Shown in pieces: positions 2,910-52,936 of a stretch of DNA of 64,000 bases. The notes under the pieces were generated by a model, which worked only from the letters and a program-made list of their open reading frames with translations, did not search any database and was not told the origin of the DNA. The DNA is from Psammoneis japonica (lineage: Eukaryota), in the NCBI GenBank assembly GCA_008632985.1, contig QPGO01000063.1, positions 248,001-312,000 on the forward strand. Reading direction: 5' to 3'. Position 1 is the stretch's first letter. Each line of letters begins with the position of its first letter. A program made the translations under genes and the position numbers.

Positions 2910-4400
2910 AACACTGTAAAGAACGAACAATAATCTCCCAGGTCTGCCCAGGGAGTGCATCTTGTAGCTGCATGGTCTGGCCGGTGGTCGACCTGCCCCT
3001 TTGACACCTCTTGACACCACCTCGAACACAAAGACAGACACGATTGCTGATTGACAGCCAGACCGTCGCAATTCGCTCGAGCGAGCATGGCGAGAATGAC
3101 AGAAAACGCAACACCGTCGCGGGGAAGCAAACAGGCGCATCCCAATAAGGAGCAGAAAAAAAAAGGGAAGAGCAGTGAATGGAGAAAATGATGCCACAAT
3201 TGCCAATGAAAACAAAAAGAAACAGAACAATGAAAAGCTGCTGGGAGAAGCTGGGAAGCCCGGAGCAGCTCCGCACACAAAAAAATGCAAAAAAGAAGGG
3301 AGACCAGCCCCCTCAAGCTCCCAAGACAGAAGACAAACCCTGTGCCGGAGGAAGCAAGAAACAAGCCAAAACAATGATCAATGCTGTTGCCCCAGCAGAG
3401 GCCCTTGCCATCACAGACAATGATTGAGTGCTGGTGCCACAAAAGAGACAAGTGTGCAAGAGCTGCGGACAATCGACGGTGATTGGCAGACTCAGTGAGC
3501 TAGATGACAGTGGATCCTCTCAAAAAAGCAAGAACAGACATCTGGAAGAATCACCACAGGAAACTTGGATCAGGGCCTTGGACCCCAGTCCAGAGGCCAG
3601 CAAGAATGAAGATGAGCCAGCGGGACCTGTGTTTTGGCCAACGGGCAAAAACCACTTGAGAGCTCTTCAGACAACAGTGAACAGGAAGAGGAGGAACAAG
3701 AGAAGCAGTCTCTAGCCACTTTCAGTGCCACCAGCAGGAGCCTCAAATTCACCAAAGAGGAGGAAAGTCTGGGCAGCAACAAGGGTGGCAGGCTCACTTG
3801 CGCCGATGCAATGCAGCGCATTTGTCGTGATGTGCCCCAGAGAAGGCACTTTGAGCTGTCACCAATGTGATGCATCTCAAGAGCTGGCAGCATGCAAAAA
3901 GCATTGGGGGGCAAGGCAGCCATTGGCACTTGGGGCCCAGAACTCCAGATGGTGTCTCAGAAGAAAAGTTGCAAAAGAGTGCAAAGCACCAGTCAGTTGA
4001 ACTTTTGGTGGCAGACTGTCTCAATCCAAGAGTCAATCAAGAACACAAGTCACACTGCCAGATCAGGCTAATTGCCACAGACAATGCCAGTGCAGAGGTG
4101 GAGAGGAAATGCAGAGAGAGAAGCTGCTTGGAACATTTGGAGAAATTGAAAAAAGCGAATTCACAGTCTCTTGGAATGCAACTCCATGTCAGTGGATGGC
4201 TCCACATGAACGCCAAGACTGTGAGCAAGAGAGCCCTTCAACCATCAACTCAGAAAAGCTCTGGGATTGGCAAACAAAAGAGAGCATGTTGGCTTTCAAT
4301 GGAGAATGACCATGTTGCCCAATGGATGAAAATTCAGCAGGCATTGTGGGCCTGAAAGAAAAATCGAGCTCCAGCACTGACAGGCAAACCATCAGACAGA
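2910..4400 (+). mobile_element. Degenerate unclassified repeat/TE remnant
   Basis: TA- and CG-poor composition like the adjacent identified TEs, fragmented ORFs, no recognisable motif. Confidence 0.35.
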
Positions 4401-4689
4401 CAGAGCTCTCTGATCAACTTGAACCAAGTCAGATCAATGACCACATCAATCAGATGAAGTGGTGGACTTCCTCTCTCCAATTGACTCTCATCCTCACAAT
4501 TTCTCTAACCTGCCAGTGGAACCACCACATTCTTTCAGGTTTGAGCCCAAGCAAGTGTTGCATTGAGCCTCTCTCACCACACTCTTGGCTCTTCTTTTTG
4601 TCCTTTCTTGTTTTGCACCATTGTGCACTCATCTCAGTCGCTGCTCATGACACTTCACCCATCGCCCGCCAATGTTTTGGGGCACCTGC

Positions 4690-7600
4690 TCCATGAGAAT
4701 CCTCGTGGCACTCTCCGCAGTGCTCTGCTTTGCCGCCATTAGCACCATCGATCCTCAAGCCACCCACCACAAATGTCGTGAAGGAATGGCCACCAACACC
4801 AAACTTGCCACTGCTCTGGCCGCTCTTGCTGCTGCAGTCAACAATCTCAACGCAGGCACCGCAGGAGGCTGTGCCGCAGCTGCCGTGCATGTGCTTGTCC
4901 TCGATCCCTTCGAATTGAATGATGCCTTCAACTTGAGCTCTTGCGTGGGAGAATCCGCTTTCAGGCAGGCATCAGCACCCATCGCACTGGCCTGGGACAG
5001 CAATGCTGAGACTTTTCCAGCATTCCTCATGCCACTCAAGGTCCAAGCCAGAGAGGCGCACTGGAGTGCAGCTGAACCTCAGGGCAGAACCACCATGAAT
5101 GGCTGTGACATTTTTGACGTGCATGATCAAATCACAAATGCCCAAGTCAAACCACTTGTGCCACTCATGTCAATGACCAAGCCAAGCAAAACTCCTAGGC
5201 CCTCCATCATTGCCTAAAGGATTCCATCACGGGTGCCATTCACAATGCTGTGTTTGGACAGCACAACAATGCTCCTGCTCATGAGGATGGTGTGGCCTTC
5301 TTGTGGAAACAACTCACTGCCTTTGCCATCACGTCCACCATTCAAATGAGCTCCTCTGCTCTGGATGACATTCTTTGCATGGATCCTGCTGAGTGTGACT
5401 TCCATGTCCCAACTGTCAACTCAAGATTGTCCAACTTGTCTGCCCTGGTCACTGCTCAGCATTGCACCTTGCATCATTCGGAGTGCATCCAGCATGCTGT
5501 CACTGTGTGTGGATGCATTCAACAGCCTCTTTTGTGGTCTCAGTGGGTCACCACCCAAACTGAGAAAACTGAAGCTGGTGCAGTTGCCAATGGCCAGGAT
5601 TTTGTGAACTTGGTGGCTCTCAAGTGTTCCAAGATTGTTGCCAAGGATGGTGACTTCAAGGCCTCCACCAACACCCTTCAAGAGGATGTGGTGGCCATGA
5701 TCACTGCCTCCAAGCACAAATGTGCTGCTGCCTCCCCCAAGAACTCACTGACCAATGATGCAACTCCTCCAGCCAAGAAGAAGAAGAAGAAGACACCTCC
5801 CTTTGCACGTCATTGCAAGACCTCCAATCAAGCTGGTGCAACCCCTCATAAGGTCAGCAACACCAAGGACTGGGACAAGAAGACCTGGCATTTCTGTGAT
5901 TGTCCCAATCATTGTGACCATTCAGGTGGCATGCTCACCCCACCTCCGAGTGCCGTGTGCACCTCAGCTGGCTCAAGACCAAGCAGGAGGATCAAGGTGA
6001 CCCCAGTGCTGACCTCAGCATGCAAGACACCAATGCACTGGCTTCTGCACCCCTGGCCAGTGATGGCATTGCAAATGTTGCCAACGATGCTGCCACCCTT
6101 CTGGCCAATGCGTGTGCTTTGCTGAGCGGCCACACCAAGATCCAGAATCAAATTGCCAATGCACTTGCCTCCCTGCAGGATGAACAAAGGTCATGCCACA
6201 GTGGCATGGCATTGATGTTCCCAGTCTTATTTCCATTGGACCTGTGCATTGCCCTGCCATGGCTCCTCCTTTTGCGTCGCATCCATTGCATCCCGCATTG
6301 CCTTCCTCACCAGTCTGCCTCCTCTGGCCATCAAACTCCGAGGGAGAGTTGGTCCCCTGCAAACCACTGTCCAATTTCTGTCTCCTACAAAGATGTCATT
6401 GTTGAGTCTCCATGACCTTTGTCATCAGTCAATGTCCCCATCCACTGGGTGCCACCTCAACTCTACAGTCCGAAACCAAACCCATCTGCTGCCATGCGAC
6501 CTTGTTGACACTGCCGCCGCCGCACCCCTGTTGGCCAACCAGCAAAGAAAGTGGGACGCCTGCTGTCAGTCCTGACTTTTTGGAACCTGTCATCTGCACC
6601 CCCTGTGTGCACCCTCCCTGGTGCAAACTGTGCTTTGATGAAAGGTGAGGCCTCTTCAGACACAGTCAGACAGCAACAACATGTTGAGACTGCAGTCAAC
6701 AATGTTGCTTCCACTTTTTCATCTCAACTGGGTGACTCACCCTGTCCCCAACAACAATGGAGAGAGCAACAACGCCCTTGATGACCTCAAGAGCCACCCA
6801 TTCTGCTTTGTTGTAGACACCAACAGCATTGAATGATGCATTGACACGGGCGCCAACCGATTTATCTTCAATGACATAAAATTGGTGGAGCAGGTCTTGG
6901 CTTGCGGACTTTCTTCTGGTGTTAAAGGCATGAACAGCAAACTGGTCAGAGTGCATGGATCTGGTGCAATGAAGCTGCCCCTGGATCAGATGATGGACAC
7001 ACTGACACTGTGCCAGCCAAGGGAGCTGTGTGCACACCTGCTTCTCCATGTGATCTGATCCCACCACAGTTGTTGATCAACTCAATGAAAGCCCAGGGAT
7101 GCATTGTTGAACACTCCAGTCATGACAATGTAATGCATCAGTTCTGGCGCTGCAGACCCGATGACCAGAAGTGGCAAAAACTCACTGCTGTTTCCTCCAA
7201 CAACTTTTTCTTCTTCAGCACCAAACTTGGGCACAAGTCCTTTTGCAACCATGCCCATCTCCACGATGCCAAGTGTTGCTTTGCAGTGATTGGAGACTCC
7301 TCCCTGCATGTGGTGAACGACTCCTTGGATGACAAATCCAAAAACACCAACTCCCACCAACAAGTGAGAGAACCAAGGGAGCCGTCAGTGAACCTGGGAA
7401 ACCTGAGGGAGCGCATCAAACCAAGGGAGCCATCAGAAACCCAAGGAAAACTGAGGGAGTGTGTCAAGTCCACCAAGAAAATGAGGAAGCCAAGTTCAGA
7501 TGATGCCCCACATGAGACACTGTGCAATGATTCTGACTTTGATCCAATTGCAAACAGCCCATGAACCACTGTGTTTGATAAAAACAACACCTTGACAGGC

Positions 7601-8420
7601 TCCACGGCACCATCAGACCTGGACATTGTCACCACCCATTGCAAAAAGTAGAAACTGGCCATGATCCATGAAACCCTGGGACACCTGAGCCTTGCCAAAC
7701 CAAGCTGATGGCACGTGTGGGACTCACACCCCAGGAGCTTGCTAACGTGGAGCCACCTGCATGCCCAGGTTGTGCCTGTGGAAAGGCCCAGCACAAACCA
7801 AAGGCAACCAAGGGCAAGAGGAACAGAAATGAGATCAAACCCGCTGCCACTCCCAGACAGGTCATGAGTGTTGACCAACTGGTGAGCTCCACACCCAGGC
7901 TGGTCCCTGCTCACCAGGGCAATCCTGCTGCCACCCGCTGTGATGGCACCACCATGTTTGTGTGCCACTTCTCCGATTTCACCTGCATGCACCTCATGAC
8001 AGTCATGGATGCCGCTGCCACCGTCAAGGCCAAACTTGCATTCAAACACATGGCACAAGCTTGCAGCACACAAGTCCAACATTGCCATGCAGACAATGGC
8101 CTCTTTGACACCAAAAACTTCAAGGCTTTGATCAAACTGCAAATCAGACCCTCAGCTTCTGTGGCATCAATGCTCATCACCAAAACAGCCGGGCCGAGAA
8201 CAGAACAAAAGACATCACCGCAGGTGCATGAATGGCCTTTCTGCATGCTGCCCATTGATGGCCCAAGGTGATGCACCCTTCACTGTGGCCCATGGTGCTC
8301 AAGAACTGCACCAATCTTTGCAATGCCTTTCCTGCCAAGCATGTGCTGGAAGTCAGAAGCAAAAGCAAGATTGTGAAACTGGCAAAGTTCAACAGCTCAC
8401 CTGAATCGCTGTTCTCCAGA
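4690..8420 (+). mobile_element. Ty1/copia (CoDi-like) LTR retrotransposon remnant: gag, protease, integrase; truncated before RT
   Basis: gag from MATNTKLATAL (4786); KTWHFCDCPNH knuckle; protease CIDTGANR (~6840); HETLGH...CPGCACGK zinc motif; integrase VSVDQ-like VMSVDQL, CHADNGLF, FCGINAHHQN, SLWPMVLK. Many stops and frameshifts. Confidence 0.9.
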
Positions 8421-10360
8421 TGGGCAAATTGGCACCACCAATCAACATCATTGAGAGATTGGCACTCTGTGCCAGTGTCAAGTGGCTGTGTTCAACAGGG
8501 TCACTCTGATTGGAGGCATCAGTCCTGGACATCCTCATCTTTCATTGGAAATCATGTTTGAAGAGTCTTTGCACTGCAGGGTTAGAGTGCAATTTGCCAC
8601 CTTGATCCACAAGCACACATTTGTTGTGGGATTTTTTGGTGAGTGCTCCTCCAGGAATTGGCTGATCCACACAATGGGAGCATGGCCTTGGAGACACAAG
8701 CAGTGCACCATGGAGACATCAGGTGTGTGGATGCAGATTGTGATCCAACAAGTCTCACCATTGAGACCTGCACAGTCCACCACATGGTCCTTGTTCTTGG
8801 ACTTAAAACCAGAGAATGCAAAATCCACAGTTGAGCCTTGATGCAGCTGGGCAGCAATCTGAGCAGAATTGAGTGGGGCCAGCCAGGTTCTTGGTCTGCT
8901 TTGCACAAATGCAAGAGGGGCAAGCATCCAAGGGGGCGTGCCACGGTCAAATCTTTTTGATGCCATCAATGTGTTGGTGAGCATTGTGCAAGCAATGAGA
9001 AGAGAGCAATCCACAGAAGAGGGCCACCCCAGCCTGGGACCAGCAACGCCTTTGAGAAAATTAGACACCTTCTCTTGGTCTCAGCCACTGGCTCTCCCAG
9101 ATCAAGGTTGTGTGCCTTCTGGCAACACTGGACATGCTGGTCAAAGGTGACCCCACCTCTGCCAGCCCACTTTGTGGTTGCTGTCTGAGAATGCAGGCAG
9201 TTTTTCCCAGCAGCAGTGGCAGCAGTCCCTTCCACTTGCCTCTCAAGTGCAAGAAAAACCTTGTGCCCATTCCAGGTGTGATTGAATGGATTGATGGGGG
9301 CCCACCTGGGTCCTTCAAAAACAAGTTGTTTGAGCACATAACTTTCCTGGTGCAAGGCAGTTGCAATGAGGTCCTTGTTGATTGCACCACAGTTCTTGGC
9401 ACAAATTTTGTCCATGACATCCAAAGTTTTGCAAACCACATGGAGTGGTGGAGCCAGAGTGACTGTGTTGAAATGGTGGCAGAGTTTCGCCTGGTAGAAC
9501 AGCTCCCCCCACTTGACAAAGTCACGCATCTGGGCAAGGAGAGAGGCCTTGCGCAAGTCTTGTTGTCTGACTCATCCTCCTTCTGAACATTGTCCAGCTC
9601 AGCCAGGCCCCCAGCCCACTTGGTGGGGCAACAATGTTGCTTGCAGCTGCAGCAGCTTGCCCCCCACACCTTTGGACAGTCTCCAGCTGTGCATGGAGTG
9701 CCTTGAGGTTCCCATTGGTGGCACCCTTTCTGAAAACCTCAATCATGTCCATGACAGACCATTTTGCACCAAAGATGGCCAGATGAAATGGGGCGCGCAA
9801 AAGATTTTGCTGCACAAGCCACGTGCAACTCAGTGTCTCCCCCCCCCCCCCCCCCCGACACATTCCAAGCAAGTCATGCAAACATGTCATGTGCTCTTTG
9901 TGTGCAAAAGACAAGTTCCAGTCACTGATGTGTAATCTTGGCCCATTTGTTGAGTTCCAATGCATCCCTTCCTTTCTGCGCAATTTCTGCATGAATTTGG
10001 CACCACGATTTCCCGTCTCACAAAAAAATGCCATGCTTGTGAAGAATGCACAACACAGTGTTCAACAAGACTCAATGAAAGAAAAATGCTTTTCCAGAAC
10101 TTTGCTCAATGGAGGACAGCTTTGGCAAATGTGCTTTGTGGCTTTGCAATGTCTGATTGTCACTTGCCATCAAGTGTTGAATCACACAGGAGAAGCATGG
10201 TGGAAATCTTCTGTGCACGACCCCATTTTTCAGATTTTCTGTCTGTCATCTTCCATGCAAAATGGTCTGTCATGAATCTTTGAGTGGTGGCATGTTCATG
10301 GGCTCCAGGCCTGAGACCCAGCCCAATCAGGCAAGCATCAAAAACAATGGTCACAACTTG
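8420..10360 (-). mobile_element. Second copia-like element (gag to protease) in opposite orientation, interrupted by a MITE
   Basis: gag-like NGHKVFLALERQVEG...TFDQHV...KAHN..LGEPVAETKKVSNFLKG. Possible protease LDTG near 8480. Confidence 0.65.
9750..10274. mobile_element. ~525 bp MITE-like insertion with imperfect terminal inverted repeats
   Basis: CATGACAGACCATTTTGCA at 9750 and its reverse complement ending at 10274. Similarity extends about 60 bp (AAATGGGG..GCA.A.AAGATTT). Confidence 0.7.
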
Positions 10361-12273
10361 CAAAAGGTCTTCTTTTGAGGGCAAGTGCAAAATGTGATGT
10401 TGCAAATGTTGTCACTTTCAGAAAAAGTGGTGTGAAAATGAGTGGTAGCTCATGCAAGGAATGCCAACCAATGGAAATGCATGACAGCAAACAATGAGTG
10501 ACAATTAAAATCCTCACATGAGTGCACCCCACACATGTCTTGGCATGTGCGCATCACACTCATGCAATGTCCAATGGGCAAAATGTCTTCTCTTTCACAA
10601 TTGCACACAGCTGCAATGAATGTTGCAATTGTGCAAGCAACCATGGACCTGCGGTGCTTGTCACAAAAATCTTCCAACTGCGGCAGTTTGCAAAGCCGTC
10701 ACAATGTCTGTTCTGGACTTCTGAACAAAGCAAGACATTGACAGCTCTGACAAAGTGAGCAAAGCATGCTCCAGTTGTTGAGAAACAGACAAAATGCAAC
10801 AGAAGACAGTGGATGCAGCAACCAACAGACATTTGAAAAATTTGTGGGGTTGCTCCTCTGTGCCACCCAGACATGGAGCTTTGTCATGCACATTGGCTTT
10901 GTTCCTGGAGCACCTTCCTTTTCCCTCTTTTAGAGTGCTGTGCAAGAGGAGGAGCAGACAGTTCCACTTCTGAACAGCAACTGCCACCTTCCTTCAGTGC
11001 TGTTGGTGTGAGGAAATGATGTTGTCATTTTGGCTGTCCTTGTTGGCCCCCACTCTAGACCAGAAAATGACTCTTGTTCCTGCCAAAACTCCAGTCTGTC
11101 CCTTGCCCCCAAAAACTTCAATCTGCTCCCCATTGTCTGGGTTTTTACAAAAAGAACATTTTGCGCACAAAACTTGCTAAGAGCAAACAATGACCACCCA
11201 GATCAGGTTCCACAAAGCTCAAACAGCACAGGGGTGGCACATTGAGAGAGTCTTTGCTGCACAGGTGTTGCGCAGCTCATTTTGGTGCTCTCATCACAAC
11301 AGGCAGCATTTGCACACCATCTCCACAGTTGCTTGAGCCTCAGACATTTTGACTGGCAAGGTCTTCTTCTGTCTCATCTTTCTTTTTACCCACTTCTTGA
11401 TTTCCAAAGCTTTCTCAGCAAAAAGGACATGAGAGCAGCTCTGGCTCTCACATGACAATGAACAACAACAACAACAGAAGGCTGGGGAGGTCACAATGTT
11501 TTCATTTCTTCCATGTCTTCACAGTGAGAAAAACTTGAGCATGCAACCAAAGGGTGCAGCGGACAACGGATGGACATGTGGACATCCAGAAAGGGAGTTG
11601 CACGCATGGAGCCAAAAAATGTGCGTGCACGTCAACCTCATTTCCACAAGCAGTGGCGGCACGGCAGGCAAAAAACACAACCATGGCAACCACAATGGCA
11701 AAAGCCACCACAAGTGCAGCGTTGCCTGCTGCCAGCAAATCATCGTTCACCTGAGCCCAATCAGGAAGATGTCAACATGACATCATGCGTGTCTTTTTGG
11801 TTGTCACGAGAGCAAGAGCCAAGCAATTAGATTGGTGTTCATGTTGGCAGGTTCACAGGATTGGGGTTAAAACGTGATCTGAATGGTGAAGGGGTGTGGG
11901 GTGAGCAGTTGTCACAAAGACCGCAAGTCATCCGAGCACCACACTGTCCAAAAATGGAACTTGGCTTCCAGGTTCCCGCCCAAACATTGCCCACAAATTT
12001 TTATTTGGCATTTAACAAGAGAAAATTCCAGGCCATTTTTCTGCATGTGCCTTGTGACCATTGAGGTTTTCATGCTCAATGACTGGCACAAATTGCTCAG
12101 TGGACTTTTGCACAAATTCCACTGTTTTCTGGGTTTTTGGGGTTAAAACGGTGGTTGCCGTTAAGTGCCGTTAAAAGAAAAGGGCCACATGATTTGTGAC
12201 CAGATGTGACTCTTGTCAAACAATGACTCAAGCCAGCCGGCATCTTGAATCAAAATTTGTCAAATTGGATGAC

Positions 12274-13348
12274 TGTGACAAAATGTGCGGCTGCTGCCAC
12301 TTTGGCAGCTCATCCCCTTGTGCTCTCTCAGGCTGGCCAACGGTGTTGGTGCACTGCTCACTCAAGATGGGGAAGGAATCCAGAATCCTGAGTGGGGCAT
12401 GGGTGGGTGGGCATCTGAGACTTTTGCAGGCGAGCGGCATTTGTTGCATGTGTCATTCGCATGACACGTGAGATGTGCAATGAACCATTCTACAGCAATG
12501 CTCCTGAAACTGCCTCCTTGCTTCTTGATTCTTTGTCCCTCTCAAACAAACACGAAGAATGAGGAGCTCTCTCTCAAACCATTCATGTCAGGCTGTCAGT
12601 TTCTCTGATGGAAGGACAGACACAAATGCAGCACATCAGACTGGACCGCAACGTTTCCGCCAAAATCCTTCCCACTTCCACACTCTGCTGTGACAGCAGC
12701 TGCTGCCACTTTGGTGGCTCCTCCCCTTGCACTCTCTCAGGCCAGTCAACAGTGGTGTTGGTGGCAAGCACTTCTTTGCTGGGCCAGTGCACTGCCCACT
12801 CAAGACAGGGAAGGAATCCAGAATCCTGAGTGTCTCCACCACAGGGCCAAATGGCGCCGAATTGGGAAGGGTGGGTGGGCACCGGCAGACAATCCAAAAT
12901 GACTTGGTGGGAGCAGAGGTGGGCAATGACCTCAAAGCATCTGTCCACAGAGGGAGTGGATGGAAGGGAGAATGAGAAGTGTTGTTGCAAAAGGAGGGGA
13001 GGAAAACTTTCTGGCAAGGCATGGAAAACCTTGATGCAAAACCTGGGCAAAAAACCTGGCCAAGCTAGAAAAAGCAGCATCTGAGACTTTTGCAGGCGAG
13101 TGGCATTTGTTGCATGTGTCATTTGCACGACACGTGAGACACACAACGAACCATTCTACAGCAATGCTCCTGAAATTGCCTCCTCGCTCCTTGATTCTTT
13201 GTCCCTCTCAAACAAACACAAAGAATGAGGAGCTCTATCTCAAACCATTCACATCAGGCTGTCAGTTTATCTGATGGAAGGACAGACGTCAACACAACAC
13301 GTCAGGCCAGACCACAATGTTTCTGCCAAAATCCTTCCTGCTTCCACT
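12274..13348. repeat. Tandem direct duplication (units ~12274-12682 and ~12689-13348, first unit internally deleted); possibly LTR-derived
   Basis: 12411-12680 aligns with 13077-13347. Both units start TGTGACA..CTGCTGCCACTTTGG. Differences are mostly CG/TG/CA swaps. Confidence 0.85.
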
Positions 13349-13773
13349 GCGACAGACAATTTCCCAAAAGCTTGCCTGCACCTCTTTCGCCCCCTTCCAT
13401 TTCAAAGCACAATTCACAGCTGCAATGTCTCAAACAGCAGCAACAACAGCCGCCTTGTGAGTGCAGTCAAATTGCTGCAGCAGAAAAAGCGGCAACAACA
13501 GCAAGCACACAAATGAGTCAAAAATGCAACTGGACAAAAGAGGACATCACCTGCCATGGTGGTTCTGCCACAACTGCAAAGACAAACAATTGCATCGTTG
13601 CAGTTCTTGGCATTGCCAACCTGTGGTGCGTCATGGCAAAAAAATTTGCGTGCATTCAACCGTGCAAAAAAATCCATTCTAATCCATTCTGGCAAACAAA
13701 GAGTCAATGACAAATGCATCAATTTCATGTGACTGCAGCACTGCACTGGTTCACATTGTGCACTTGACAAAAA

Positions 13774-14782
13774 CAACATGCTGAGGCAATGGATGCAATG
13801 TCTCTTCCAAGCATGAATTCAAATGAAGGTCATGCCCACACCAGCCACACCATTCAATCAAACATTCAAGCATGCCCACACCGGCAGCAGTGCAGATGGA
13901 GCTGACAAATGGAGCATTGATGGTTGAATGTGTGACATCTGCAAAAACAAAGAGCATGACTTTTGTGAGGAATTTGTGCAACACATCATGAAAAACTGCT
14001 GCTGGTTGTTTTGGCAAGAACCGTTGTTGTTGCACAAGCACAAACGGTGCACAGAAAATGCAGTGCAAAATGTCTTGCCGGTGCAACAGCACAGTGCGCT
14101 TGTAGACCAGTGTCAGGTGGGTTCCAGTTCTTTCTAAAACACAGTCAAGGGGGTCATCCCCACGTTTGTCCTGGAATCATTGCCGAGGCATTTAAATCAG
14201 ATTTTTTACAGTGTCAGTTCTTGAATGCAAAAATTGTCTGCACTGGCACCCAATCATGCATGAAGACGAGAACATCAAGCACCGTGATCAAGGCACTGCG
14301 ATGGCAGAAATCTAACATTTCTCCAAAATGCAGTGGTCCGTCCACAAACATTTGGTGTGTCAGTGACTTTGACACACAACAAACACAAAATGGATGAGAG
14401 TTGGCAGATGGACATCCACAGACTTGTGGCTTGATGTTTTCACCATGGTGAAGCATGGTGGAATTCATGACAAATCATTCAAAACACAAGCTGTTCAGCC
14501 AAATTTGAGCTAAAAAAGCTGCAAATGACCCCCCCAAGAGTTTTTGCATGTTGTGTCACCCACAAATTCCTCACAAAAGTCCGTGCTTTTCAAGTGCAAC
14601 ATTTGGATGTTTTTGCAGATGTTGCACATTCAACTGTCTCGACACTCCATTTGTCAACATCTTTCAACACTGCTGTCATGCTCAAATGTTTGATTCATTG
14701 GCATGGCAGGCGTGGGCATGACCTTAATTTGAGTTCACATTCATGCATGGAGAGACATTCCAAATGTTGCCTCAGCATGTTG
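13774..14782. repeat. Degenerate inverted repeat pair (13774-13997 and 14539-14782)
   Basis: CAACATGCTGAGGCAA...AAGGTCATGCCCAC...TGACAAATGGAG...GACTTTTGTGAGGAATTTGTG is present on opposite strands. Confidence 0.8.
14149..14534. mobile_element. Kolobok-like MITE family 1, heavily mutated copy
   Basis: GGGGGTCAT...ATGACCCCC termini, flanks TCAA/CCAA (degenerate TTAA). Homologous to 21820-22094 and 22218-22610. Confidence 0.8.
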
Positions 14783-14789
14783 CAACTTG

Positions 14790-16000
14790 CAACAACTGCT
14801 GCCATGGTTGCTGTGGAGGCAGCCGGAAAGAACACACCTGACGGTGCAACTGTGAGGTCCAGTGCTTTTCTCACAGCACAAGTTGAGAACTCGAGCATCA
14901 CCAGGAAAGCACAGACACCGACTTCTGCTGCATCAACCTGCCGCACCCTCAAAGATGCACAGTGGCAAAGACAACCAAAAAAGGAAAAAATGATCATGAC
15001 AGCGCCCTCCTCAACATCACATTTGCATGGGCCTCCAACACAGAGTGCTGAGGCAACCTTGGCATCTGGCCATGGCAACTCTGCGTCATCATGCAAATCC
15101 GACATGCACTTGGATGTTTTCCAATGAGACCACGACAATCCTTCTCATCTTTTTGGCACCCATTTTTGCGGGCACACGTTGAGCCACATTTCTGTCACTG
15201 TGCAAGCCAACTGGTCCTTTGGTGCTTCCTGTTGCAGCAACAAATTCTGGACAAATGTGCACTTCATTTGAGAGCATCTTGGTGATTGCATCCTTCACCT
15301 TTTCAAACACTTCCAGCCAAATCGCCAAGCCAAGCAAAGAACAAAAGTCCATTGCCCCAACAAGGATTTGGTTGGGGCATCTCTTTCTTCTAGAGTGCTC
15401 TTTGACCAATTTGGCCTTGCCCACAGGGCAAAGTCATTGGCTGGATGGGGGGTGAAATTCTCGTGAGAAACTGCATGCAGTCATCGATGCGGCCAATGAT
15501 GTGAACCTGAAACTGGGAACAAGCTTGGCATGGGACACTTCCACAGCATGGAATTGGTCTGGTTTTCTGTGAGCATTTTCATTTGAGCCCAGTGCTCCTC
15601 ATCTTTCAATGGTCGTCTCTTTTTTGATGGCATGCCCCTGCTCCGAGTCTCCTCTTTCTTGACCTTTTTGATGAGGTTGTTTGCGTCAGTTGATCGTGTT
15701 GGGTTGCCTTGGTTTGACCAAACATTCCATAGCATCAACCAGTTTGGCACACAGCTAAAAATTGCCTTCTTCCAGCATTCCAATGAACTTGACCTTGCTT
15801 GCTTGTGGTTCGGGCGTTCCAGCCCATGCGCACCTTTAGATTCATCCACCACTTGACATCGTCAGGGGTCGACAAGTCACCCCATCAAGAAGTGACATGA
15901 GTGCCATCAAGGTTGGCTTGCAATATTTTTAGATGGCATGGTCTCCGTTGCATTGTTGCACAAATCGATCAGAAACTCGACAAACACCACGCAACAACCC
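14790..16000 (-). mobile_element. Crypton (CryptonS-like) tyrosine-recombinase transposon remnant
   Basis: RSSSLECWKKAI...GNPTRS...NLIKKVKK; QILVGAMDFCSLLGLAIWLE; GPVGLHSDR (HxxR box); WKTSKCMSDLHDDAELPWPDAKVASALCVGGPCKC (catalytic Tyr position reads His). Confidence 0.8.
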
Positions 16001-16445
16001 AGTTGTTTCAATGCGAAAAAAATTCCCGTGCTTCCTCCACAAAAGTGTGGAAGGTGCGGTCGCTGAAGGGGAGCGAGGGTCAGCACAACATGCAGAATTC
16101 AATGGAGAAATGCAACATGGGTTGCATTCCCGGGACAATGCACCGGCAGAGAGCAGAGCAAAGAGCTGCGGCACTTCTACCGTGCAGTGTCATGTGGTGG
16201 CACGTGGCACGCACACACGCACCGCACGCACGCAGCGCATGCAGTGGCGCAGGCGCAGCAACGCACGCACGTACGATAAGTATGTACCCTACCCTACCTA
16301 CTTCTAGTCTACGCACGAAACGGACAACGAAGCGCAGCACACAAAACCATTTCGAATCCATGATGCCACGCACTGCCAGCAATCAGCAGGGGAGCCCTTC
16401 CGCAACTTGGCAGAGAGAAAAGGCCTCGTTTCCGTCGCTTTGACC

Positions 16446-21370: not shown

Positions 21371-21819
21371 GGTTATAAACAACACCTATGACAATCAAAA
21401 CTCGTTGCCAAGCACTTTATGAGAGGAATATTGCTGGGGGTCAAGACAGAGAGTCAAAAGAGCAATGCAGCGTGATGAGGGCCTATCCATACCCGGTAAG
21501 GCCTATTCTTGCGTCGGTTGAGGAGTCTTGAGTCGTCATTGTCGCATGTCTCAACCGACCCACGACCCAACGGATCAATTTTTTGTGGCAGGACCTACGC
21601 CAGAGAGCCAGTCGTGTAATTACAAATACTTGTAGAAGTAATAAATCTTGAATGTATAAATAAAAATGCTATTATCGTTTACATATTATGTCTGGGCGCC
21701 CCGAAAAACCCGGGATTCAGTCCCGGGTTTTCCACTACAGTACCGGTAGCCGTTAGCCGTTGAACGGAAAGATCCAATAACCATTGATCATTACTCAGAG
21801 GTTTTAGTCGGGATGTTAA

Positions 21820-22094: not shown

Positions 22095-22213
22095 NNNNNN
22101 NNNNNNNNNNNNNNNNNNNNNNNNNNNNNNNNNNNNNNNNNNNNNNNNNNNNNNNNNNNNNNNNNNNNNNNNNNNNNNNNNNNNNNNNNNNNNNNNNNNN
22201 NNNNNNNNNNNNN
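22095..22213. other. Assembly gap
   Basis: Run of N. Confidence 1.
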
Positions 22214-22217
22214 TTAA

Positions 22218-39270: not shown

Positions 39271-39502
39271 TGCTCTCTAACTGGAGAGCATGCTCTAGCT
39301 GGCTAACTGCCAGGCCCTGGCAGAGCAGCCTCTCCACTTAGCTACTCTCTCTAGCTGCTAGCTGCTCTCTCTAGCTCTAGCTGGTAGAGAGAGTAGAGCT
39401 CTGCTGGTGGTGGCTGGCAGAGGTGCTGCAGAGTCTATTTCCACTCGAAGTAGTCAACCTGAAATCCACCTCATTTCTCATTTCTTGTCTGAGCCTTGCG
39501 CC

Positions 39503-43900: not shown

Positions 43901-44638
43901 GGCTTTAAGCAGAAAAATGAAGTGAGCTTGGAGAGGGGAGCTGAAGGGGGCAGTGGAACAGGTTATGTGGTTGGAAGTATCGCTGGAGGAACAGGTTATG
44001 TGGTGAAAAATCAATCCTTCCGATTGCGAGCTCGTCGACTTCCGAAAATATCACCAGAAAAAAGAAAAACTGGAAATGCATTCCTAACAACCATAAACGA
44101 ATATAAATTTCGCGGGCTCGAAAAATCGTCAGAAAAAAGAAAAACTGCTGTTGCTCCTGCCTTTGGGATGCCTGAATGCGTCTTCCAATTTTATGAAGAA
44201 ATGAGCAGGTGGTGGCACAAGAGTGCTGAAAACCTTCCCAAGGGTTGCTGGGTTGAAAGTTTGCTGCTGACTGACACGCGAGAGCATTGCGAACTGGCGC
44301 CGCTGGAGGAAGCGAGCCGGGAGCTGTCAATTGGTTGTTTGCTTCTTTTGCAAGAGAGCAGATGGCAGAAAGCAAATGGATTTTGTGAAATGTCTCATTG
44401 GGGTCAATGTGCTGAGGATCAAAACTCTGGAGAGTGTGGTTGGCGCGGCTCAGAAGCTGTCGAAAACCAAGCTCTTGGCTTGGGAGCTCATCGCATGATT
44501 GCCTGTGCCACCTTGATGGGAGTGATTGTTGATGTCCAGCATCATGATTCAGCTTTTTTCTGCAAAGGCATGGAGACTTGGAAATGGTTGCAGAAGGAGT
44601 GTGGTCTTGGTGCGCTGCGACTGGCGCTTTCTCTGCTC

Positions 44639-44803
44639 ATGGCAACGCTCATGTCTCATGGCGTCTTGTGCAATGACGAGATTCCTTGGCAGATTGGAGC
44701 AGGATTTGCATTTCCTCTCTTTGGCAGTGTAAGCTGCAGGTGTGTTTTGGATGCTCTGAATTGGAAAGAAGACCTTGATGAAATCGAGACAAGTGGGCTG
44801 TGA
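44639..44803 (+). pseudogene. Dead 3' fragment of the DUF2214 gene (start of direct repeat copy 2, 44639-45205)
   Basis: ATLMSHGVLCNDEIPWQIGAGFAF..FGSVSCRCVLDALNWKEDLDEIETS versus intact ATLMSRGVLYSDEIPWQIGAGFAF..FGGASYKYVSDALNWKEDLDEIETS. Confidence 0.95.
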
Positions 44804-45135
44804 GTCCCAGCTCTCCCTGCGTTCTTGCACAAAGGTCACAGGCAGCTGAAAGCCTGCGAGCTAATGCAGGTTTATGCTGCCTACTCACACCACAGTTACC
44901 ATGCGCTTGTTTAGTGCATCATCGCAAGAAATAAAAAAGTTTTTTCTGCTTTAGAACAAGGGATAAAATGAGCGAGGTCGACTTCGGACTTTCGCAACAG
45001 CAACTGAAAAATTGGGTCCCGCTTTGCATTCGCGATCGAGTCACGAGCTCGGCGACCGGCGACGGCACACTGCACCATAATCTGAATACCTCTTGCGCTG
45101 CTGTTCGAATTCGAAGCTTTCGCTCATGCTTAACA

Positions 45136-46399: not shown

Positions 46400-49300
46400 A
46401 TAACAGTGGTCAACTATTTCTTCGTCCCTTTTTTTGGCGTCACATTTCTCAAAGCCATCTCAACCATAAGAAATGTGTGCGGTAGGATCTTCAGGTCTCT
46501 TTGGTGCTACCAACCAGGCTGGCACCGAACTTGAATACTTTTATCAAGCTGAGACTCAAGTGGATGAAGATACAGTGAGTGGATTCTGTCTGTGTTTGCA
46601 AGAAAACTCTCAACATTTCACTCCTGTCTGCTTGGGTTTCCTCCAAAAGCTGGAGGAAATGGGTCAACTGGGAGAAACCGACTTTGACCTTCATTTCGTT
46701 GCAACGGGTGTGGGCAAGGCATGGCACAAGCTTGGCCAACTCGGACAGGACACCTTGTCTCCAGCATCTGCCACCAGTTCTTTGACCACAGACAATTTTG
46801 TGAGCCTTTCCCCCAGTTCTTGCACTCTCATTGGGTCAGTGAAAAAAGCAGTGAAGAAGGAAATGAGCAAAAAGCACGTGGCAGCATTTGTGGCCAGCTC
46901 CACAGCAGTGCTTGCAATCTGAGCAACCAGCTCATGGTTAATGCCGACCATCGTCACAAAGAGCTTTTGGGAAAAGTCAATGAAACTGGCACAATGGCAT
47001 TGGAAAAAAATGATGAAGCTGGCATGAAGAGTTGGAAAAAGTTGATGGAACTGCTGGCGTGCACATGCTTTGCTGGTTTGCAGTCTCTGCAGCAGTCTGT
47101 GCAGCAGGAGGCAACAACTCTCTGCAGCACTTTGTTCAGCAGGGCAACAAGCCTTGCCAGGTGTCCATGTCAACCATGATGGCCTGTCTTGAGTTCACTG
47201 GCAAGAGGGTGGGAGTCGATGTTTGGGACAGCAAGTTGGACCGCATGATGGTGGACCAGCTGGCAGCTCCACCTCAAGGCACAGTGCTTGAAAAAGATGA
47301 GTGGCACAAGTCCAGAAGAGAGGGCTTCAAGGGCATTGCTTTTCTAGCAAATGCCAGCTGCCGCCCACTTCAAAGACAGCAAGAAGTGGGCCCACATGGA
47401 GGTGGTGGCCTGCACCGACTGGCCTGTGTTTGCTGGCTCCGAACTCAAAAAGAAGTGCATCTCTGAGCTCCAAGTTTGCAAAGCCAAAGGTGCGCATTGG
47501 GTTTGTGGGGCTTTGTTTGTGGGGCTTTATCCACAGGATTGACATGTTTGCATGGACACTGTGCCACGCCAGTGCCGGGGAAAGGACATCTCTGTGACTC
47601 TCGATGGCCAGTGCAAAAGAGGTGCCGCTGCTCATGCTGCCACTGCCGCTGCTGGTGCTGGCACCACTGGTGCCACTGACACTTTTGCACTGGCATTGTT
47701 GCTGCCATTGTAACCACAGGTGGCATTGCAGCTGCTGGCACTGCCGCTGCTGCAGTGTTGAGATGACAAGACAAGTCACGCAGTGTCGACAAAGTGGGCA
47801 GGAGCAAACCACCACCAGTTGCCACTTGTCATGAATGGCAAAAATGCCACACCTCCACCACATTGGCAGCCATGCCAAGTGCAACATTGCCATCATCGTT
47901 GTCACTCCGAGAGCAATGAGCTGGCCTGCTGTGCTCCAGTTTGGGGTTGATGTTGTGGCCACATTGTGGGCATGCCTTTTTGGCTTTGGGGCTTTCCTGT
48001 CGTCTTGGGCTCTTCCTTGATCTTTTTGGGATTTCTGGCTTTCACAGTTTTTGCTTGTGAGTGTTGAGCATGCCAGCAAAACAAGAAGCCACCCAATGGT
48101 CACACTTTTCCTTTCCACAAGGGGCTGCATGTGCCCCATTGGCGGTGGCACACAGCAACCATCTTTGTGACCTGTCTGGGCCTTTCTCAAAAATCACAGG
48201 GTTGGCTTTCCCGGTTTTGCAAATTTGAGAACCTTGTGCTCCCACATGGTTTTTGCAATTGCCAAGATTTGCGGGTTTCTTGTCACACTTGGCAATCTCC
48301 ACTTTTGGGTGGCTCTTGAGGTGCTCTGTCAAGTTTTCTTGGCAGTTTCCAACAAAAGATCAAGGCGCAGTTGGACAAGGAAGCATGCTGTTTGAACAGT
48401 TTGGGACGTGGCACAAACTTCTTTATGAGCTCGCACTTGGGCATGTTGGTCTTCTCTTTTCTGGGCTCCCACTCCTGCCAAAATCACCCCCATGATCACA
48501 GAGGGGACAAGTGCTCATCTTGTCAAGAATCACCACTCATCTCTTGCCAGACATGCCTCACTTCAAAGTGTTTGCTGGAGCCACAGCATGGAAGTTGTTG
48601 TGGTGAATGCAGCTGCGATGCTTGGCAATCGCTGGGTGATCAACATGGACAGTTGAAGCCAGCTGTGGGCCAAATGGAGCCAAGCAAGGCATTGTCATTG
48701 GGCCTGGGGCAGAGAAGTGGGCGGGTGGAAACTGGGTTTGCAGGCTCAAGATGAATGTCCCCATCTGGTGAGTTGGTGCCAAACACATTCACACACCAAA
48801 ATTTTTGCTGAAGTGAGCCCAGGTGCAGGCCCGCATTGATTTTGAGTTTTCATCCAACAATGAGAAGGTGGTGCGCACTCAGGAAATGGAAACAAACACC
48901 AGCTTTCCCAGGGTTCCCTTGGAAGACTTTGTTGTGACTCATGAGGAGCAACTTTCTGTTGATGATCCACCTGATCTTACTGCAGCTGCTGCATCTTGAA
49001 CGGGCTGTTGGCCGACATCAAAACAGCCATTGTGTGAAGGACAAAGAAGTGCACCAGCTGTCACTTGGTGTTTTCAGCCTGCTGCTGCTGCTGGAGAATC
49101 TCCCGGTGCTGTGGAAGAAAGAGGCAAGCCAGCGCTGGAGGAGTTTGCTGAAGCAGAGGATGTGATGACAATGGCTGTGGAGCCTGCTGCTGCTGGGGAT
49201 GAAGCAGAGTTGGGCAAGTCCACTGAGGTGGATGAGGTGCAGGGTGTGCCAGTGGATGAAACAGATGGGACAGCATTGGAGGAGCCTGCTGAAGCAGAGG

Positions 49301-52300
49301 ACATGACAGTGGTGGCTGTGGAGCCTGACACTGCTGCTGCTGCTAGGGATGAAGTGGAGCTGGACAATGAGTCTACCCCAAAGTGGATGAGATGCAGGAC
49401 TTGACAGTGGACAAAAGAGGTGAAACAGTGTTGGACAAGTTTGCCAAAGCAGAGGACACAATGACAATGGCTGTGGAGCATGCTGGAGAATTGCGTGTTG
49501 CCACAGAAGTTGCGATGCTGGCAGAAACTCATGGCAAGTCAAGAGGACACAAGGGACCAGGCCCAAATTTTCAAGGGGGCTGCCACTCAAGAAGGCTTCT
49601 TCATCAAATGGAGGTCCAACACTCCTTTTTAAAGTGGAAGCACTGGTGGTGCACTCGGCAACACAGTGCCACAACCTTTTGATGATTCTTTGCCCAGTGA
49701 TCCACAGGAAGAGCAAAACAAGCAGCAGAATGATGGGCAAACTGCTGGTGCTGGTTGTTTGCTGTTGAGTGCTTTGCCAACAAGCCAAGGTTCTGCCCAA
49801 GTGCTTTGAGTTCCCCACTGAGGGAAGAGCCGGGCTGTGGCTTTGAACACAGCAATGCTTTGTGTCACACAAAACCAGAGCACAAGCGCGGTGTCAAGTT
49901 GGGATGCGATGATGAGCGTGAGTGTGGTGTCGAGTTGGGGCACAACGGCGGGGTTGACAATGGTGACAGCTCTGCCAGTGAGCCTGGTGTCAAGTTGGGG
50001 TGCGATGATGGGGCTGAAGTGGGTGGTGGCTCCACCAGCAAGCCTGGCACATTGTTTTTGACCAGGTTTGTCTTTGTCTCACTTGCTCTGGGGGCACTTG
50101 TTCTTGCACCTGTGTCAAATTGGGGGTTTGACTTGACGAAGCTGAGTGACACATCAAAATTGCAAGATGGTTGGCTTCTCTGGATTGCCAGGCTGGCCAT
50201 CATGAAAAAACCATGATGGTTGTGTGAGCGGACCAATGGCAGGAGGCAATCATTCCAGGAAATGACAGTGGCTCAACTCAAGAGCTTTGGCGTTCAGGAG
50301 CTGACAAGTGGCAAGAGGAGGCAGTTGCTCCAGGGAAAAACAGCTGCTCAGCATCAGCGCCCCCAAGCTTGTCAACAGAGACACAGCAAACTCCAAGACA
50401 GGCAGCGCTGCAGCACATGCAACTTCGAAAAGTTCTTTGTCATGGATGCAGCTGCATCTTTTTTTGGGATTTGGCAAAACTTTTGACATTGTGTGGGCAG
50501 GCCACATGGGAGCAAATCTGTGAAATCAGCTTGTCAGAAGATTTTTGACATTGTGTGGGCACATCATTTGCCTGTTCGTTGGAGCCGTTTGTGCCTTCCT
50601 TGTTGGAGCTGTTTGCATTGCTTGTGTGCCACGAAACATGCTGAGGTGCTTGGCAAATGTGGAGGTGCCAAAGGAGATGTCAGATTGGACGTCAACTCCA
50701 AGGGCTGCGTCTGCACATGGGGCTGGACCCCAACAACAGGTTGCAGCCAGTGTTGTGCATCAGGGGTGTTGGTTGCAACAGAGCCATCGGCAGCCCCGTC
50801 TCTGGAGCTGAAGCATGCAACAAATGGCAAGTGTGGGAGTGCGGGGCGGGAAATGATGTGGACATCTCAAAGGGTGCCATTGACTTGCAGAGCACATTGT
50901 CAAAAAATGCACAAATCGGTCGCCGTGCAACCTGCACCTGAAGCACGCAACAACAAATGACAAGTGCAAGAGTGTGGGAAAAGAGTTTGAGTGTAGACAC
51001 CTCAAACACCTCAAAGTTTGGTGGACTGTCTCTTGTGAGGTGCATTGTCAAAAATTGTGCGGCTCGCATCTGAGCCGGACAACAGATTTGGCGGAGTTTC
51101 AGGCAGCTGTGCCCAACATCAGATCGGGCAGAGCTTCGGCAGCTGTGCCTGGCAACAGATTGGGCGGAGCTTCGGCGGCTGCGCGGCTTGCATCTGAGCC
51201 CGACAACAGACCGGGTGGAGCTTCAGCGGCTTTGGCAGTGGGGTGGGAGCCTCAGCGGCTTCGGGAGGCCACACTGGGGGCAAACCTGCAAAGTTGCTGT
51301 GATCAATTTTCCTGCCAGGGCAGCAGCAATCGTTGCGGCCCAGGCCCGGGCTGGGCTGTCGACCACAACAGCAAATGACAACGGGCCGGGTGGAGCTTCA
51401 GCGGCTTCGGCAGCAGGCAGAGCCTCACAGGCTTTGGGAGGCCACACCACTGGGGCAAATCTGCAAAATTGCTGTGGTCAATTTTCCCATCAGGGCAGCA
51501 GCAAATCGTCATGGCCTGGGCCTGACAACAGCAAACTCCAAGACAGACCGCGCTGCAGCACAACTTTGAAAAGTTTGCAGTGGATGCTGTTGCATTTTTT
51601 TGGGGGATTTGGCAGAACCTGTGTGGGCAGGCCACACCAGGGCAAATCTGTGAAATTGCTGTGGTCAATTTTCCCGCAGCAATCGCCATGGTTCAGGACA
51701 ACAACAAACTCCAAGACGGGCAGTGCTGCAACACAACTTCCAAAATTTTGTCGTGGGCACACACCGATGCATCTTTTTTTGGGATTTGGCAGAACTTTCC
51801 ACCAACATCCCTGTGACATGCAATGAAAACCAAAGGCTGCCGCCCAAGGGAACCCAGACTGTGCTTCAGCACAACTTCGAAAAGTTTGTTGTAGATGCTG
51901 TTGCGTTTTTTGGGGGGATTTGGCAGAACCTGTGTGAGCAGGCCACACCGGGGCAAATCTGTGAAATTGCTGTGGTCAATCGTCATGGTTCAGGACAACA
52001 ACAAACTCCAAGACAGGCAGTGCTGCAGCACAACTTCCAAAATTTTGTCGTGGACACATTGCTGCATCTTTTTTTGGGATTTAGCAGAACTTTCCCCAAC
52101 ATCCCTGTGACATGCAATGAAAACCAAAGGCCCCAACCCAAAACTCCAAGAACTTCAAAAAGACATCCTGACATGGGCATGAATGACCTCATCGTTGTTT
52201 TGCAATGAAAACCAATGGCCACAACTGGAAACCCCAAGAACTTCGAAAAGTTTGTGGTGGACACACGGTTGCATCTTTTTGGGATTTAGCAGAAATTTCC

Positions 52301-52930
52301 ACCAACCATCCTGACATGTCGTTTTGCAATGAAAAACCAACGGCCCCAACAGGAAAAATGACCAGCTGCAGTCTGCTGAGGGGTTGTGCCACAGCTGAGG
52401 TGTCATGGCTATTTTTGTCTTGCGTTGCCCAAAGTGTTAAAAGAGAAAATTATGCATTATCTGGATTCAAATCTGATTGGCCGCAAGGTACAATTTTTAT
52501 AAGTAAAGTCGTGGACGACATGTCAGAGTCACGGATTGAATGCAACGCAAAAATGGTTGTTTTGGGATTGAGAAGAACTTCCTATCAATGTCCTGACATG
52601 GGCATGACCTCCCATCATTTTGTAATAAAAACCAATGGCCCTAACCCGGAATGGCCAGCTGCAGCGTCTGTTGAGGGATTGTGGCTGTTGCCGGAGGGAG
52701 TGTGGCCATAGTTGTCATGGCTATTTTGTCTTGCGTTGCCCTAAGTGTAAAAAAAAATTAAACAAGAAGACTGCGAGATTATCTGAATTAAAATCTGATT
52801 GGCCTCAAGGTCACCATTTTTATAAATACAGTCGTGGATGACATGTCAGAGTCACGGATTGAATGCAACGCAAAAATGATAGTTTTGCATTGGAAACCAA
52901 CGGTTCATGGCTAGTCTGTTGAGGAGTCCT
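46400..52930. repeat. Degenerate repeat block, unclassified, with internal tandem arrays (~140-155 bp x3 at 49080-49520; CAAACTCCAAGAC..GCTGCA.CAC units at ~50387, 51532, 51705, 52002; duplicated segment 52375-52565 / 52670-52890)
   Basis: Visible repeated units. TA/CG-poor up to ~52400, TA-retaining afterwards. Confidence 0.7.
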
Positions 52931-52936
52931 GATTAA

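Follow-up and report, generated by a model that had tools for sequence, protein, structure and literature searches.

In a 64,000-nucleotide stretch of the genome of the diatom Psammoneis japonica (contig QPGO01000063.1, positions 248,001 to 312,000; the whole of this stretch is called the window below), five sharply bounded blocks have lost most of their TpA dinucleotides and are enriched in TpG and CpA. This loss is mutational, bound to the TpA dinucleotide, and affects either strand. We consider it probable that the blocks record in-place hypermutation at the DNA level, TpA to TpG or CpA, in delimited domains of dead retrotransposons and other repeats. An earlier note on this DNA, made from the sequence alone, had proposed such a hypermutation and framed it as a repeat-restricted "reverse RIP", after the repeat-induced point mutation (RIP) of fungi.

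Extent and composition of the low-TpA blocks

The observed/expected ratio (o/e) of TA was calculated in sliding 1-kb windows, TA was counted per 200 bp, and the whole window was segmented into blocks. In the 1-kb windows, TA o/e is 0.02-0.13 across approximately 3001-16000, 23001-31000, 37001-39000, and 47001-52000, and 0.4-0.8 elsewhere. Similarly, 200 bp contain 0-1 TA inside the blocks and 5-10 outside, and the switch at the block edges spans less than 100 bp. Segmentation yields five blocks with a sum of 30.3 kb, none assigned to a strand:

2941..16270: low-TpA block 1, 13.3 kb, a mosaic of degenerate repeats; 61 TA, TA o/e about 0.07, CG o/e 0.25
22390 (approximate)..30880: low-TpA block 2, 8.5 kb; CG o/e 0.45-0.6 in the left part (to about 26900) and 0.05-0.15 in the right part
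37241..39290: low-TpA block 3, 2 kb; 8 TA; protein homology was not detected
44111..44870: low-TpA block 4, 0.76 kb; 3 TA; its last 230 bp or so lie within a segment duplicated at 32003-32535
46551..52400: low-TpA block 5, 5.9 kb; 14 TA, TA o/e 0.04; internal short tandem and dispersed repeats; protein homology was not detected

Pooled over the blocks, the o/e is 0.06 for TA (n=117), 0.29 for CG, 1.80 for TG, and 1.68 for CA, against 0.58, 0.96, 1.21, and 1.21, respectively, in the rest of the window. The other dinucleotides are near normal in the blocks, which have about 0.49-0.52 GC. When block 1 is taken to reach 16270, 121 TA are present against approximately 1094 expected from the flanking o/e (Poisson log10 p about -308), which corresponds to a loss of about 89%. 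Moreover, runs of 2-13 consecutive 1-kb windows combine TA o/e of 0.02-0.13 with TG/CA o/e of 1.4-2.3; the threshold values for such clustered TpA-poor windows are those of a preprint on the alga Bigelowiella natans (Mettrop et al., bioRxiv 10.64898/2026.01.13.699255). The block coordinates in the earlier note agree with the segmentation to roughly 100-150 bp, and its description of TA-poor, TG/CA-rich blocks within otherwise normal DNA holds, with TA o/e of about 0.06 against 0.58 and sharp edges.

Origin and context of the changes

Retroelement homology in the blocks is visible only through large-database searches, which place three unrelated remnants in blocks 1 and 2:

6215..8549, + strand: Copia-type polyprotein remnant with gag, protease, and integrase, matching residues of about 1-790 of homologues of 1300-1600 aa; the reverse transcriptase (RT) part is missing
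27342..29620, - strand: second Copia-type polyprotein remnant, the RT-RNase H part, matching residues of about 647-1400 of homologues of about 1400 aa that carry PF07727
25750..26680, + strand: C-terminal domain remnant of an RVT_1-type retroelement protein with homologues of about 1000-1160 aa

Conserved alignment columns of the homologous polyproteins were taken, and the window codon was read at each. None of the 26 conserved Tyr is kept, and 22 of them are now Cys or His through the one-step codons TGY or CAY (Y, pyrimidine; R, purine):

Copia, block 2 (27342-29620): 14 conserved Tyr, 0 kept; 6 His, 5 Cys, 2 Leu, 1 Phe
Copia, block 1 (6215-8549): 9 conserved Tyr, 0 kept; 6 Cys, 2 His, 1 Pro
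RVT_1-type element (25750-26680): 3 conserved Tyr, 0 kept; 2 Cys, 1 His

Other residues in the same alignments are mostly kept (Phe 12/14 and 12/15, Lys 16/17, His 14/15, Pro 22/25). As a control, 42 metagenomic relatives of the block-1 Copia element keep most of their Tyr (e.g. 12-15/20) and show Cys or His at only 0-3 positions. Within this control set, the window copy has kept 0/8 Tyr, yet it has kept 75% of all conserved positions, above most relatives. Four motifs in which the earlier note had suspected a lost Tyr follow the same pattern: the codon is TGC in CHADNG (8083), where 19/20 homologues have Tyr; a Cys codon at 28587-28589 in ALCGLKSSG, with Tyr in 8/8 homologues; TGC in KRKCL (26317), with Tyr in 118/145; and CAT at 26452 in KPHS, with Tyr in 114/147. 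Because conserved Tyr codons now read TGY or CAY, the loss of TA in the blocks is mutational.

Based on nucleotide-level comparison, TA has become TG or CA at 19/23 inferred TA sites, whereas the same base changes in AA, GA, CA, TT, and TG contexts amount to 7/178 (Fisher p 2.5e-17 vs TA). An A preceded by T has changed to G in 11/23 cases, compared with 2/46 when preceded by A, and first-base A>G is found in 8/13 codons after T but in 1/81 otherwise. At TT, the second base shows T>C in 0/29 cases and the first base in 3/29. Both strands are changed (Tyr>Cys 13, Tyr>His 9), and a runs test along the blocks detects no strand-coordinated clusters of TG or CA (z -0.40 to +0.35), although native TG and CA dilute this test. 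Collectively, these results show that the process is A:T>G:C, bound to TpA, and acts on either strand independently, site by site. The strand-symmetric, TA-specific A>G process that the earlier note had read from the sequence is upheld by these counts, and A>G at other contexts is comparatively rare.

The survival of TA depends on its flanking bases. Relative to the normal part of the window, ATAC, ATAT, GTAC, and GTAT survive at 0-1.3%, while TTAA, CTAA, CTAG, and TTAG survive at 18-31%, with the mixed contexts in between. By class, 3 RTAY remain against 356 in the scaled normal part, 59 YTAR against 264, and 59 of the mixed contexts against 663; the strong depletion of TAC, TAT, GTA, and ATA had already been remarked on in the earlier note. 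By the 3' base, TA survival is 0.04 for T, 0.056 for C, 0.115 for G, and 0.183 for A. This pattern fits a one-strand rule in which A changes when it lies in 5'-TAY, with RTAY almost wholly erased and YTAR erased least.

The blocks also bear a second signature. First-base G>A is found in 25/45 codons after C and in 2/137 otherwise. Codon changes thus follow T for A>G and C for G>A, which shows that two strictly dinucleotide-bound processes have acted in the blocks, one removing CpG and the other TpA. Conserved Arg is kept at 5/20 positions in the block-2 Copia remnant and 5/16 in the block-1 Copia remnant, and the remainder have turned into Gln, His, Cys, Trp, or stop, as is characteristic of CpG decay. 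In contrast, the remnant at 25750-26680 keeps 11/14 Arg while Tyr stands at 0/3. Furthermore, TA is absent from the block edges 2941-3140, about 15900-16270, and 22400-22575 although CpG density there is normal, and the left part of block 2 combines CG o/e of 0.45-0.6 with TA o/e of 0.03-0.2. The opposite combination is found in the Copia relatives L011-L015, L036, and L037 from marine metagenomes, with CG o/e of 0.03-0.20 and TA o/e of 0.60-0.71; their hosts methylate transposable elements (TEs) heavily, without the TpA process. These observations support the conclusion that TpA loss is separable from CpG decay, and faster. CpG decay driven by 5-methylcytosine (5mC) alone was considered for all of the block anomalies and ruled out, as TpA loss is independent of it; the earlier note had likewise held the two apart, which the TA-free, CpG-normal edges and the contrast between Arg and Tyr bear out.

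Low TA is also seen in the metagenomic Copia loci L003, L020, and L040-L042 (TA o/e 0.20-0.40), together with low CpG and high TG/CA. The RTAY preference is absent in these loci (ratio 0.47 vs 0.44, Fisher p 0.75), and without it they were not counted as further cases.

Read support, repeats, and neighboring genes

The bases in the blocks were compared with k-mer contigs of a public run, X1, which was labeled as DNA by guess and contains 68% of the sampled words of 24000-30000. At a word depth of about 35-65, the contigs differ from the window by 5 letters over 27543-28908, 1 over 28888-29688, 2 over 29725-32140, across the right edge of block 2, and 5 over 37472-39523. Consensus or polishing error is ruled out by these contigs, and the read support for the TG and CA bases, whose lack the earlier note had named as refuting its reading, is present, with 1-5 other letters per 0.8-2.4 kb. 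In the multi-copy left part of block 2, most of the differences between other X1 contigs and the window are transitions (290 places, vs 72 for transversions). Among 25 listed differing places in or at the edge of low-TA DNA, 11 have TG or CA in the window and CG elsewhere, 6 are three adjacent TG<->CA doubles, 2 have CG in the window and CA elsewhere, 4 are other changes, and 2 restore TA, both at a block edge. Over 37411-39381 (block 3), the X1 contig depth is about 35-40, and it rises to about 55-65 on either side; block 3 might be a hemizygous insertion, although such depth does not measure copy number.

A dispersed repeat of approximately 280-390 bp occurs in three copies in the window and provides a comparison between the inside and the outside of the blocks:

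14141..14517, - strand: block-1 copy, inside block 1; 4 TA, 6 CG
21816..22094, - strand: outside copy, just outside block 2 and left of the assembly gap; 23 TA, 19 CG; the unmutated control
22337-22614: block-2 copy, across the assembly gap, inside block 2; 5 TA, 17 CG

Compared with the outside copy, the block-2 copy shows 18 changes of TA to TG or CA (TG 9, CA 9) and 0 in reverse, and the block-1 copy shows 18 such changes and 3 in reverse. The copies at 21816-22094 and 22337-22614 are inverted and flank the sole assembly gap (N run 22095-22213). The summed X1 contig depth reaches 2175 over 22300-22956 against about 60 in genes; the repeat family thus probably has many copies, which may explain why the assembly breaks here. 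Over the longer interval 22300-26898, the summed depth is 445-2175 against about 50-75 in genes, which, depth not being copy number, hints that this DNA is present in many copies.

A second comparison is offered by a duplication that reaches into block 4:

32003..32535, + strand: paralogue of 44641-45205 in normal-TA DNA; the comparison copy

The two segments share 566 bp at 83% identity. The duplication spans the upstream region and the first 80 or so codons of the open reading frame (ORF) starting near 44968 and of its counterpart, and it resembles the duplication of a small gene family over a 13-kb interval. The duplicated part inside block 4 has 2 TA against 7 in the paralogue, which are small numbers. 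Between 44641-44870 and the paralogue, 5 changes of TA to TG or CA and 1 in reverse are accompanied by 14 other transitions and 8 transversions.

Repeats outside the blocks have normal TA, namely the 52933/54492 pair (462 bp, 86%), the tandem repeat at 55290-55725 (98.6%), and the copies at 21816-22094 and 32003-32535. Because these repeats keep TA, repetition alone is not the trigger, and "repeat-induced" triggering is not supported. The repeat-restricted, reverse-RIP framing of the earlier note is therefore not supported, in view of the repeats at 52.9-56.5 kb (86-98%), 21816-22094, and 32003-32535, while its restriction of the loss to TE-derived blocks accords with the Copia and RVT_1-type remnants in blocks 1 and 2. 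The region 52450-58000 as a whole is AT-rich (GC 0.39-0.44), with local repeats, no long ORFs, and normal TA and CpG; the tandem at 55290-55725 consists of a 223-bp unit in 1.9 copies at about 98% identity.

The blocks hold different elements, in both orientations. The Copia family of 6215-8549 differs from that of 27342-29620; homologues of the former carry PF13976, PF07727, and PF22936, and some of its named members are from the diatom Cylindrotheca. A profile of eight Copia homologues has 27345-29602 as its sole match in the window. The remnant at 25750-26680 has 2319 homologues at E<=0.001, and PF00078 (RVT_1) was found in 2/7 long ones scanned. A Pfam scan of 239 stop-to-stop ORFs of at least 70 aa from the blocks returned no TE domain, and blocks 3-5 contain no coding remnant recognizable by Pfam on ORFs or by the Copia profile.

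Between the blocks lie typical eukaryotic genes that the TA loss has left untouched; their products include a sulfotransferase, an amine oxidase/retinol-reductase-like protein, PhyH, and WD40 proteins. For one host gene, diatom proteins are the best named relatives (Cyclotella cryptica 72%, Thalassiosira exigua 70%; also Seminavis, Nitzschia, and Fistulifera), so that protein similarity assigns the window to a diatom and not to Bigelowiella. The retinol-reductase/amine-oxidase-like gene at 17638-19769 (- strand) consists of two overlapping ORFs in different frames (18978-19769 and 17638-19050), probably with a short intron, and its closest database relative, from a JGI sample, is 92% identical. 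At 59535-61607 (- strand), a 690-aa ORF without a Pfam match contains an extended mucin-like region rich in Pro, Thr, and Ser and ends in a hydrophobic C-terminal segment; judging from its sequence, it may encode a cell-surface or frustule-associated protein. Contigs of another run, X2, skip 31636-31725 (90 bases) and 39823-39986 (164 bases) at GT..AG borders; because of these skips, X2 looks RNA-derived, and the two segments look like introns of the flanking genes. The X2 contigs are almost absent from the low-TA bins of 22957-30840 and wholly absent from 37411-39381, and this was not used as evidence. Among the runs listed as containing the stretch, none is labeled as RNA.

Proposed process, related systems, and significance

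To explain these features, we propose that a DNA-level process turns the A:T pair of TpA into G:C in place. It would act inside bounded domains of dead retrotransposons and other repeats; the data show that it stops within less than 100 bp at their edges, prefers A in 5'-TAY on the strand carrying the changed A, and has erased about 90% of the sites. The CpG decay suggests that these domains are silenced, 5mC-methylated chromatin, and targeting would follow chromatin or foreign-DNA status rather than repetition as such. The process would be enzymatic and targeted, and its outcome would be irreversible inactivation of the element, because every Tyr codon and every TAA or TAG is rewritten. As for the chemistry, we tentatively propose that an enzyme of the deaminase fold, TadA/ADAT2-like or other, deaminates adenine in DNA and so yields hypoxanthine; we give this somewhat less than half of the total probability. 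The tRNA substrate of TadA/ADAT2-type enzymes is A34 after U33 and often before C35, a U-A-Y context. This context resembles 5'-TAY, and the resemblance is the one argument that may point to a TadA/ADAT2-like agent.

A comparable process, the one match that a full-text search returned, is described in the preprint on B. natans (bioRxiv 10.64898/2026.01.13.699255). According to its main text, 231/302 nuclear mutations in mutation-accumulation lines fell in two integrated viral regions, and 230/231 of these were A>G or T>C, all on TpA. The targets are integrated nucleocytoplasmic large DNA virus (NCLDV) and virophage DNA in which the mutations arise in place. Only some of the lines acquired them, and the rate was about 6e-7 per site per generation; de novo mutation seen in real time at about 1e-7 to 1e-6 belongs to the description of this type of process. 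The same text reports that TpA-poor coding sequences are enriched in RT and DDE domains and puts forward an ADAT2-like deaminase as the agent; the words "diatom", "CpG", "trinucleotide", and "flanking" do not occur in it. Measured against that text, the blocks share the restriction of A>G/T>C to TpA with TpG or CpA as products depending on the strand, the confinement to foreign or TE-derived regions within a normal genome, the TpA depletion with CpA+TpG enrichment in clustered 1-kb windows, and the association with TE coding sequence. In contrast, the host here is a diatom (stramenopile) rather than a chlorarachniophyte (rhizarian), the targets are remnants of retrotransposons, with no viral insertion identified among them, and TpA is depleted nearly to saturation (o/e 0.06, compared with a Rho of 0.45 in the NCLDV region) in DNA that also shows CpG decay. 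A 5'-TAY preference is found here and not in the main text of the preprint. Moreover, the process in B. natans, as that text describes it, was recorded as de novo mutation in real time, whereas here it is known from its trace in the sequence. The blocks therefore extend this kind of process to another algal lineage, unrelated to the first, where it is seen at saturation in retrotransposons. The statement in the earlier note that no named system exists has been overtaken by the 2026 preprint on TpA>TpG/CpA hypermutation of foreign DNA in B. natans, so far as its main text goes. No report of TpA hypermutation in diatoms was found in the literature searched, a search whose scope excluded most subscription journals; PMC9258296 proved to have no bearing on the subject.

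Other known systems resemble the blocks in part. The RIP of ascomycete fungi also makes saturating, dinucleotide-specific transitions that kill transposons and leave genes intact. It changes mainly CpA to TpA and hence creates TpA, whereas here TpA is removed and CpA/TpG raised; in addition, RIP is triggered by duplication, and repeats outside the blocks are untouched here. RIP was rejected on both grounds, as the direction is opposite and similar duplicates (52933/54492, 55290-55725, 21816-22094, 32003-32535) keep TA. The Discussion of the B. natans preprint likewise describes RIP as C>T. Deamination of 5mC affects the same blocks and gives the same products, TG and CA (CG o/e 0.29), but it cannot remove TpA, and TA is gone where CpG is near normal. 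ADAR hyper-editing and APOBEC3 editing of cDNA also leave deaminase-type transition clusters in mobile elements. In contrast to these, the change here is fixed in DNA, on both strands and without strand-coordinated runs, and AA is spared. To our knowledge, ADARs are metazoan; their preferred 3' neighbor is G, while the 3' preference here is Y. The Discussion of the B. natans preprint states that ADAR favors U before the edited A. ADAR-like or retro-cDNA editing, which should leave strand-biased, clustered A>G with U or A on the 5' side and G on the 3' side, was rejected on account of the runs-test z near 0, AA at 2/46, and the order of 3' survival (lowest for T, then C, G, and A).

Among the alternatives to the proposed process, the main rival places the chemistry on the thymine. 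In the same domains, a TET/JBP-type dioxygenase would make 5-hydroxymethyluracil (5hmU), or a derivative, at TpA as a silencing mark, and mispairing or faulty repair would lead to C. As TpA is self-complementary, T>C at RTA equals A>G at TAY, and this route accounts for the context equally. However, 5hmU pairs with A and is only weakly mutagenic, and there is no TC-context effect in the blocks; the counts at TT (0/29 and 3/29) are mildly against it. According to PMC11572971, 5hmU is enriched in the TEs of a dinoflagellate, and earlier work cited there has it replacing T preferentially in TA and TC dinucleotides. That marking resembles the present case in being directed at TEs and in preferring TA; it differs in being epigenetic, and TpA>CpA mutation is not reported to arise from it. 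On balance, we consider thymine-side chemistry unlikely, but worth serious attention. Editing of RNA or cDNA during retrotransposition by an ADAR- or APOBEC-like activity, so that mutated copies were inserted and block edges are insertion edges, would agree with the sharp edges and with the retroelement remnants in blocks 1 and 2. Such editing is very improbable given the nearly equal strands (13 Cys, 9 His) without coordinated runs, the 3' preference for Y, and the untouched AA; moreover, a saturation of about 90% is implausible in one passage, a short non-coding repeat differs by its position inside or outside a block, and the B. natans mutations, according to the main text of that preprint, arise in place in integrated DNA.

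It is also conceivable that there was no mutation at all, and that a sequencing or assembly artefact, or a stable modified TpA base in heterochromatin read as G or C, produced the signal. The scaffold gap in the window and the cover of the stretch by a single DNA run, perhaps the assembly's own data, are in line with this account. The X1 contigs nevertheless agree with the window to 1-5 letters, also across a block edge, and the differing contigs do so mostly at CpG/TpG/CpA, with TA restored in 2/25 listed places; a modified base read as G in vitro would be copied as G in vivo too. We see scarcely any likelihood in this account. Finally, silent DNA may be subject to a non-targeted bias, through Pol-eta errors at WA (W, A or T), GC-biased gene conversion, or relaxed selection combined with 5mC decay. 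This would suit the under-representation of TpA everywhere (o/e 0.58 in the rest of the window) and the CpG decay in the blocks. However, WA errors should affect AA as well as TA, which contradicts AA>AG at 2/46 against TA>TG at 11/23 and makes the Pol-eta candidate of the earlier note a poor fit. Gene conversion should raise all A/T>G/C changes, whereas block GC is only about 0.49-0.52 and other contexts are unchanged, and the relatives with extreme CpG decay (L011-L015, L036, L037) keep normal TA. Of all these accounts, non-targeted bias is the one we hold least probable.

Several points weigh against in-place hypermutation as set out above. Both the chromatin targeting and the chemistry are inferences in this organism, and a deaminated A in 5'-TAY is indistinguishable by sequence from a modified T in 5'-RTA of the opposite strand. 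The sequence records past action, and present-day activity lies beyond its reach. X1 may be the assembly's own sample, in which case it does not provide independent confirmation. Spread into a non-TE flank at 44641-44870 has little behind it, as the numbers in the paralogue comparison are too low to count for much. In addition, the product excess over the scaled normal count, +736 for YTGY+RCAR and +419 for YCAY+RTGR, is an approximate tally, which takes it as given that the original tetranucleotide make-up of the blocks was that of the neighboring DNA.

Beyond in-place hypermutation in this window, diatoms may have an active double-stranded DNA editor, guided by chromatin or foreign-DNA status, that converts 5'-TAY to TGY in silenced transposons and outpaces 5mC decay. 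It would either be shared with chlorarachniophytes, as an ancient trait or one spread horizontally among marine algae, or have arisen convergently; we put the chance of such an editor at slightly under even.

Before the 2026 preprint on a single rhizarian alga, no targeted A:T>G:C mutation of nuclear DNA was known. The same signature in a diatom means that the process is not a one-species oddity and reaches an ecologically dominant, genetically tractable group. The window adds the 5'-TAY preference, the sharp domain edges, the independence from CpG decay, and the lack of dependence on duplication. A TpA o/e below 0.15 combined with TG/CA above 1.5 provides a marker for genome scans, with which lineages that have the process and the genes that co-occur with it can be mapped, and such a co-occurrence map is a practical route to the enzyme. 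The annotation of TEs in diatoms is affected as well, as the blank Pfam result on the 239 block ORFs illustrates. If diatoms do have an active editor of this kind, it would be a natural, context-programmable adenine (or thymine) base editor and would represent a second, RIP-independent pathway of genome defense by mutation in eukaryotes.

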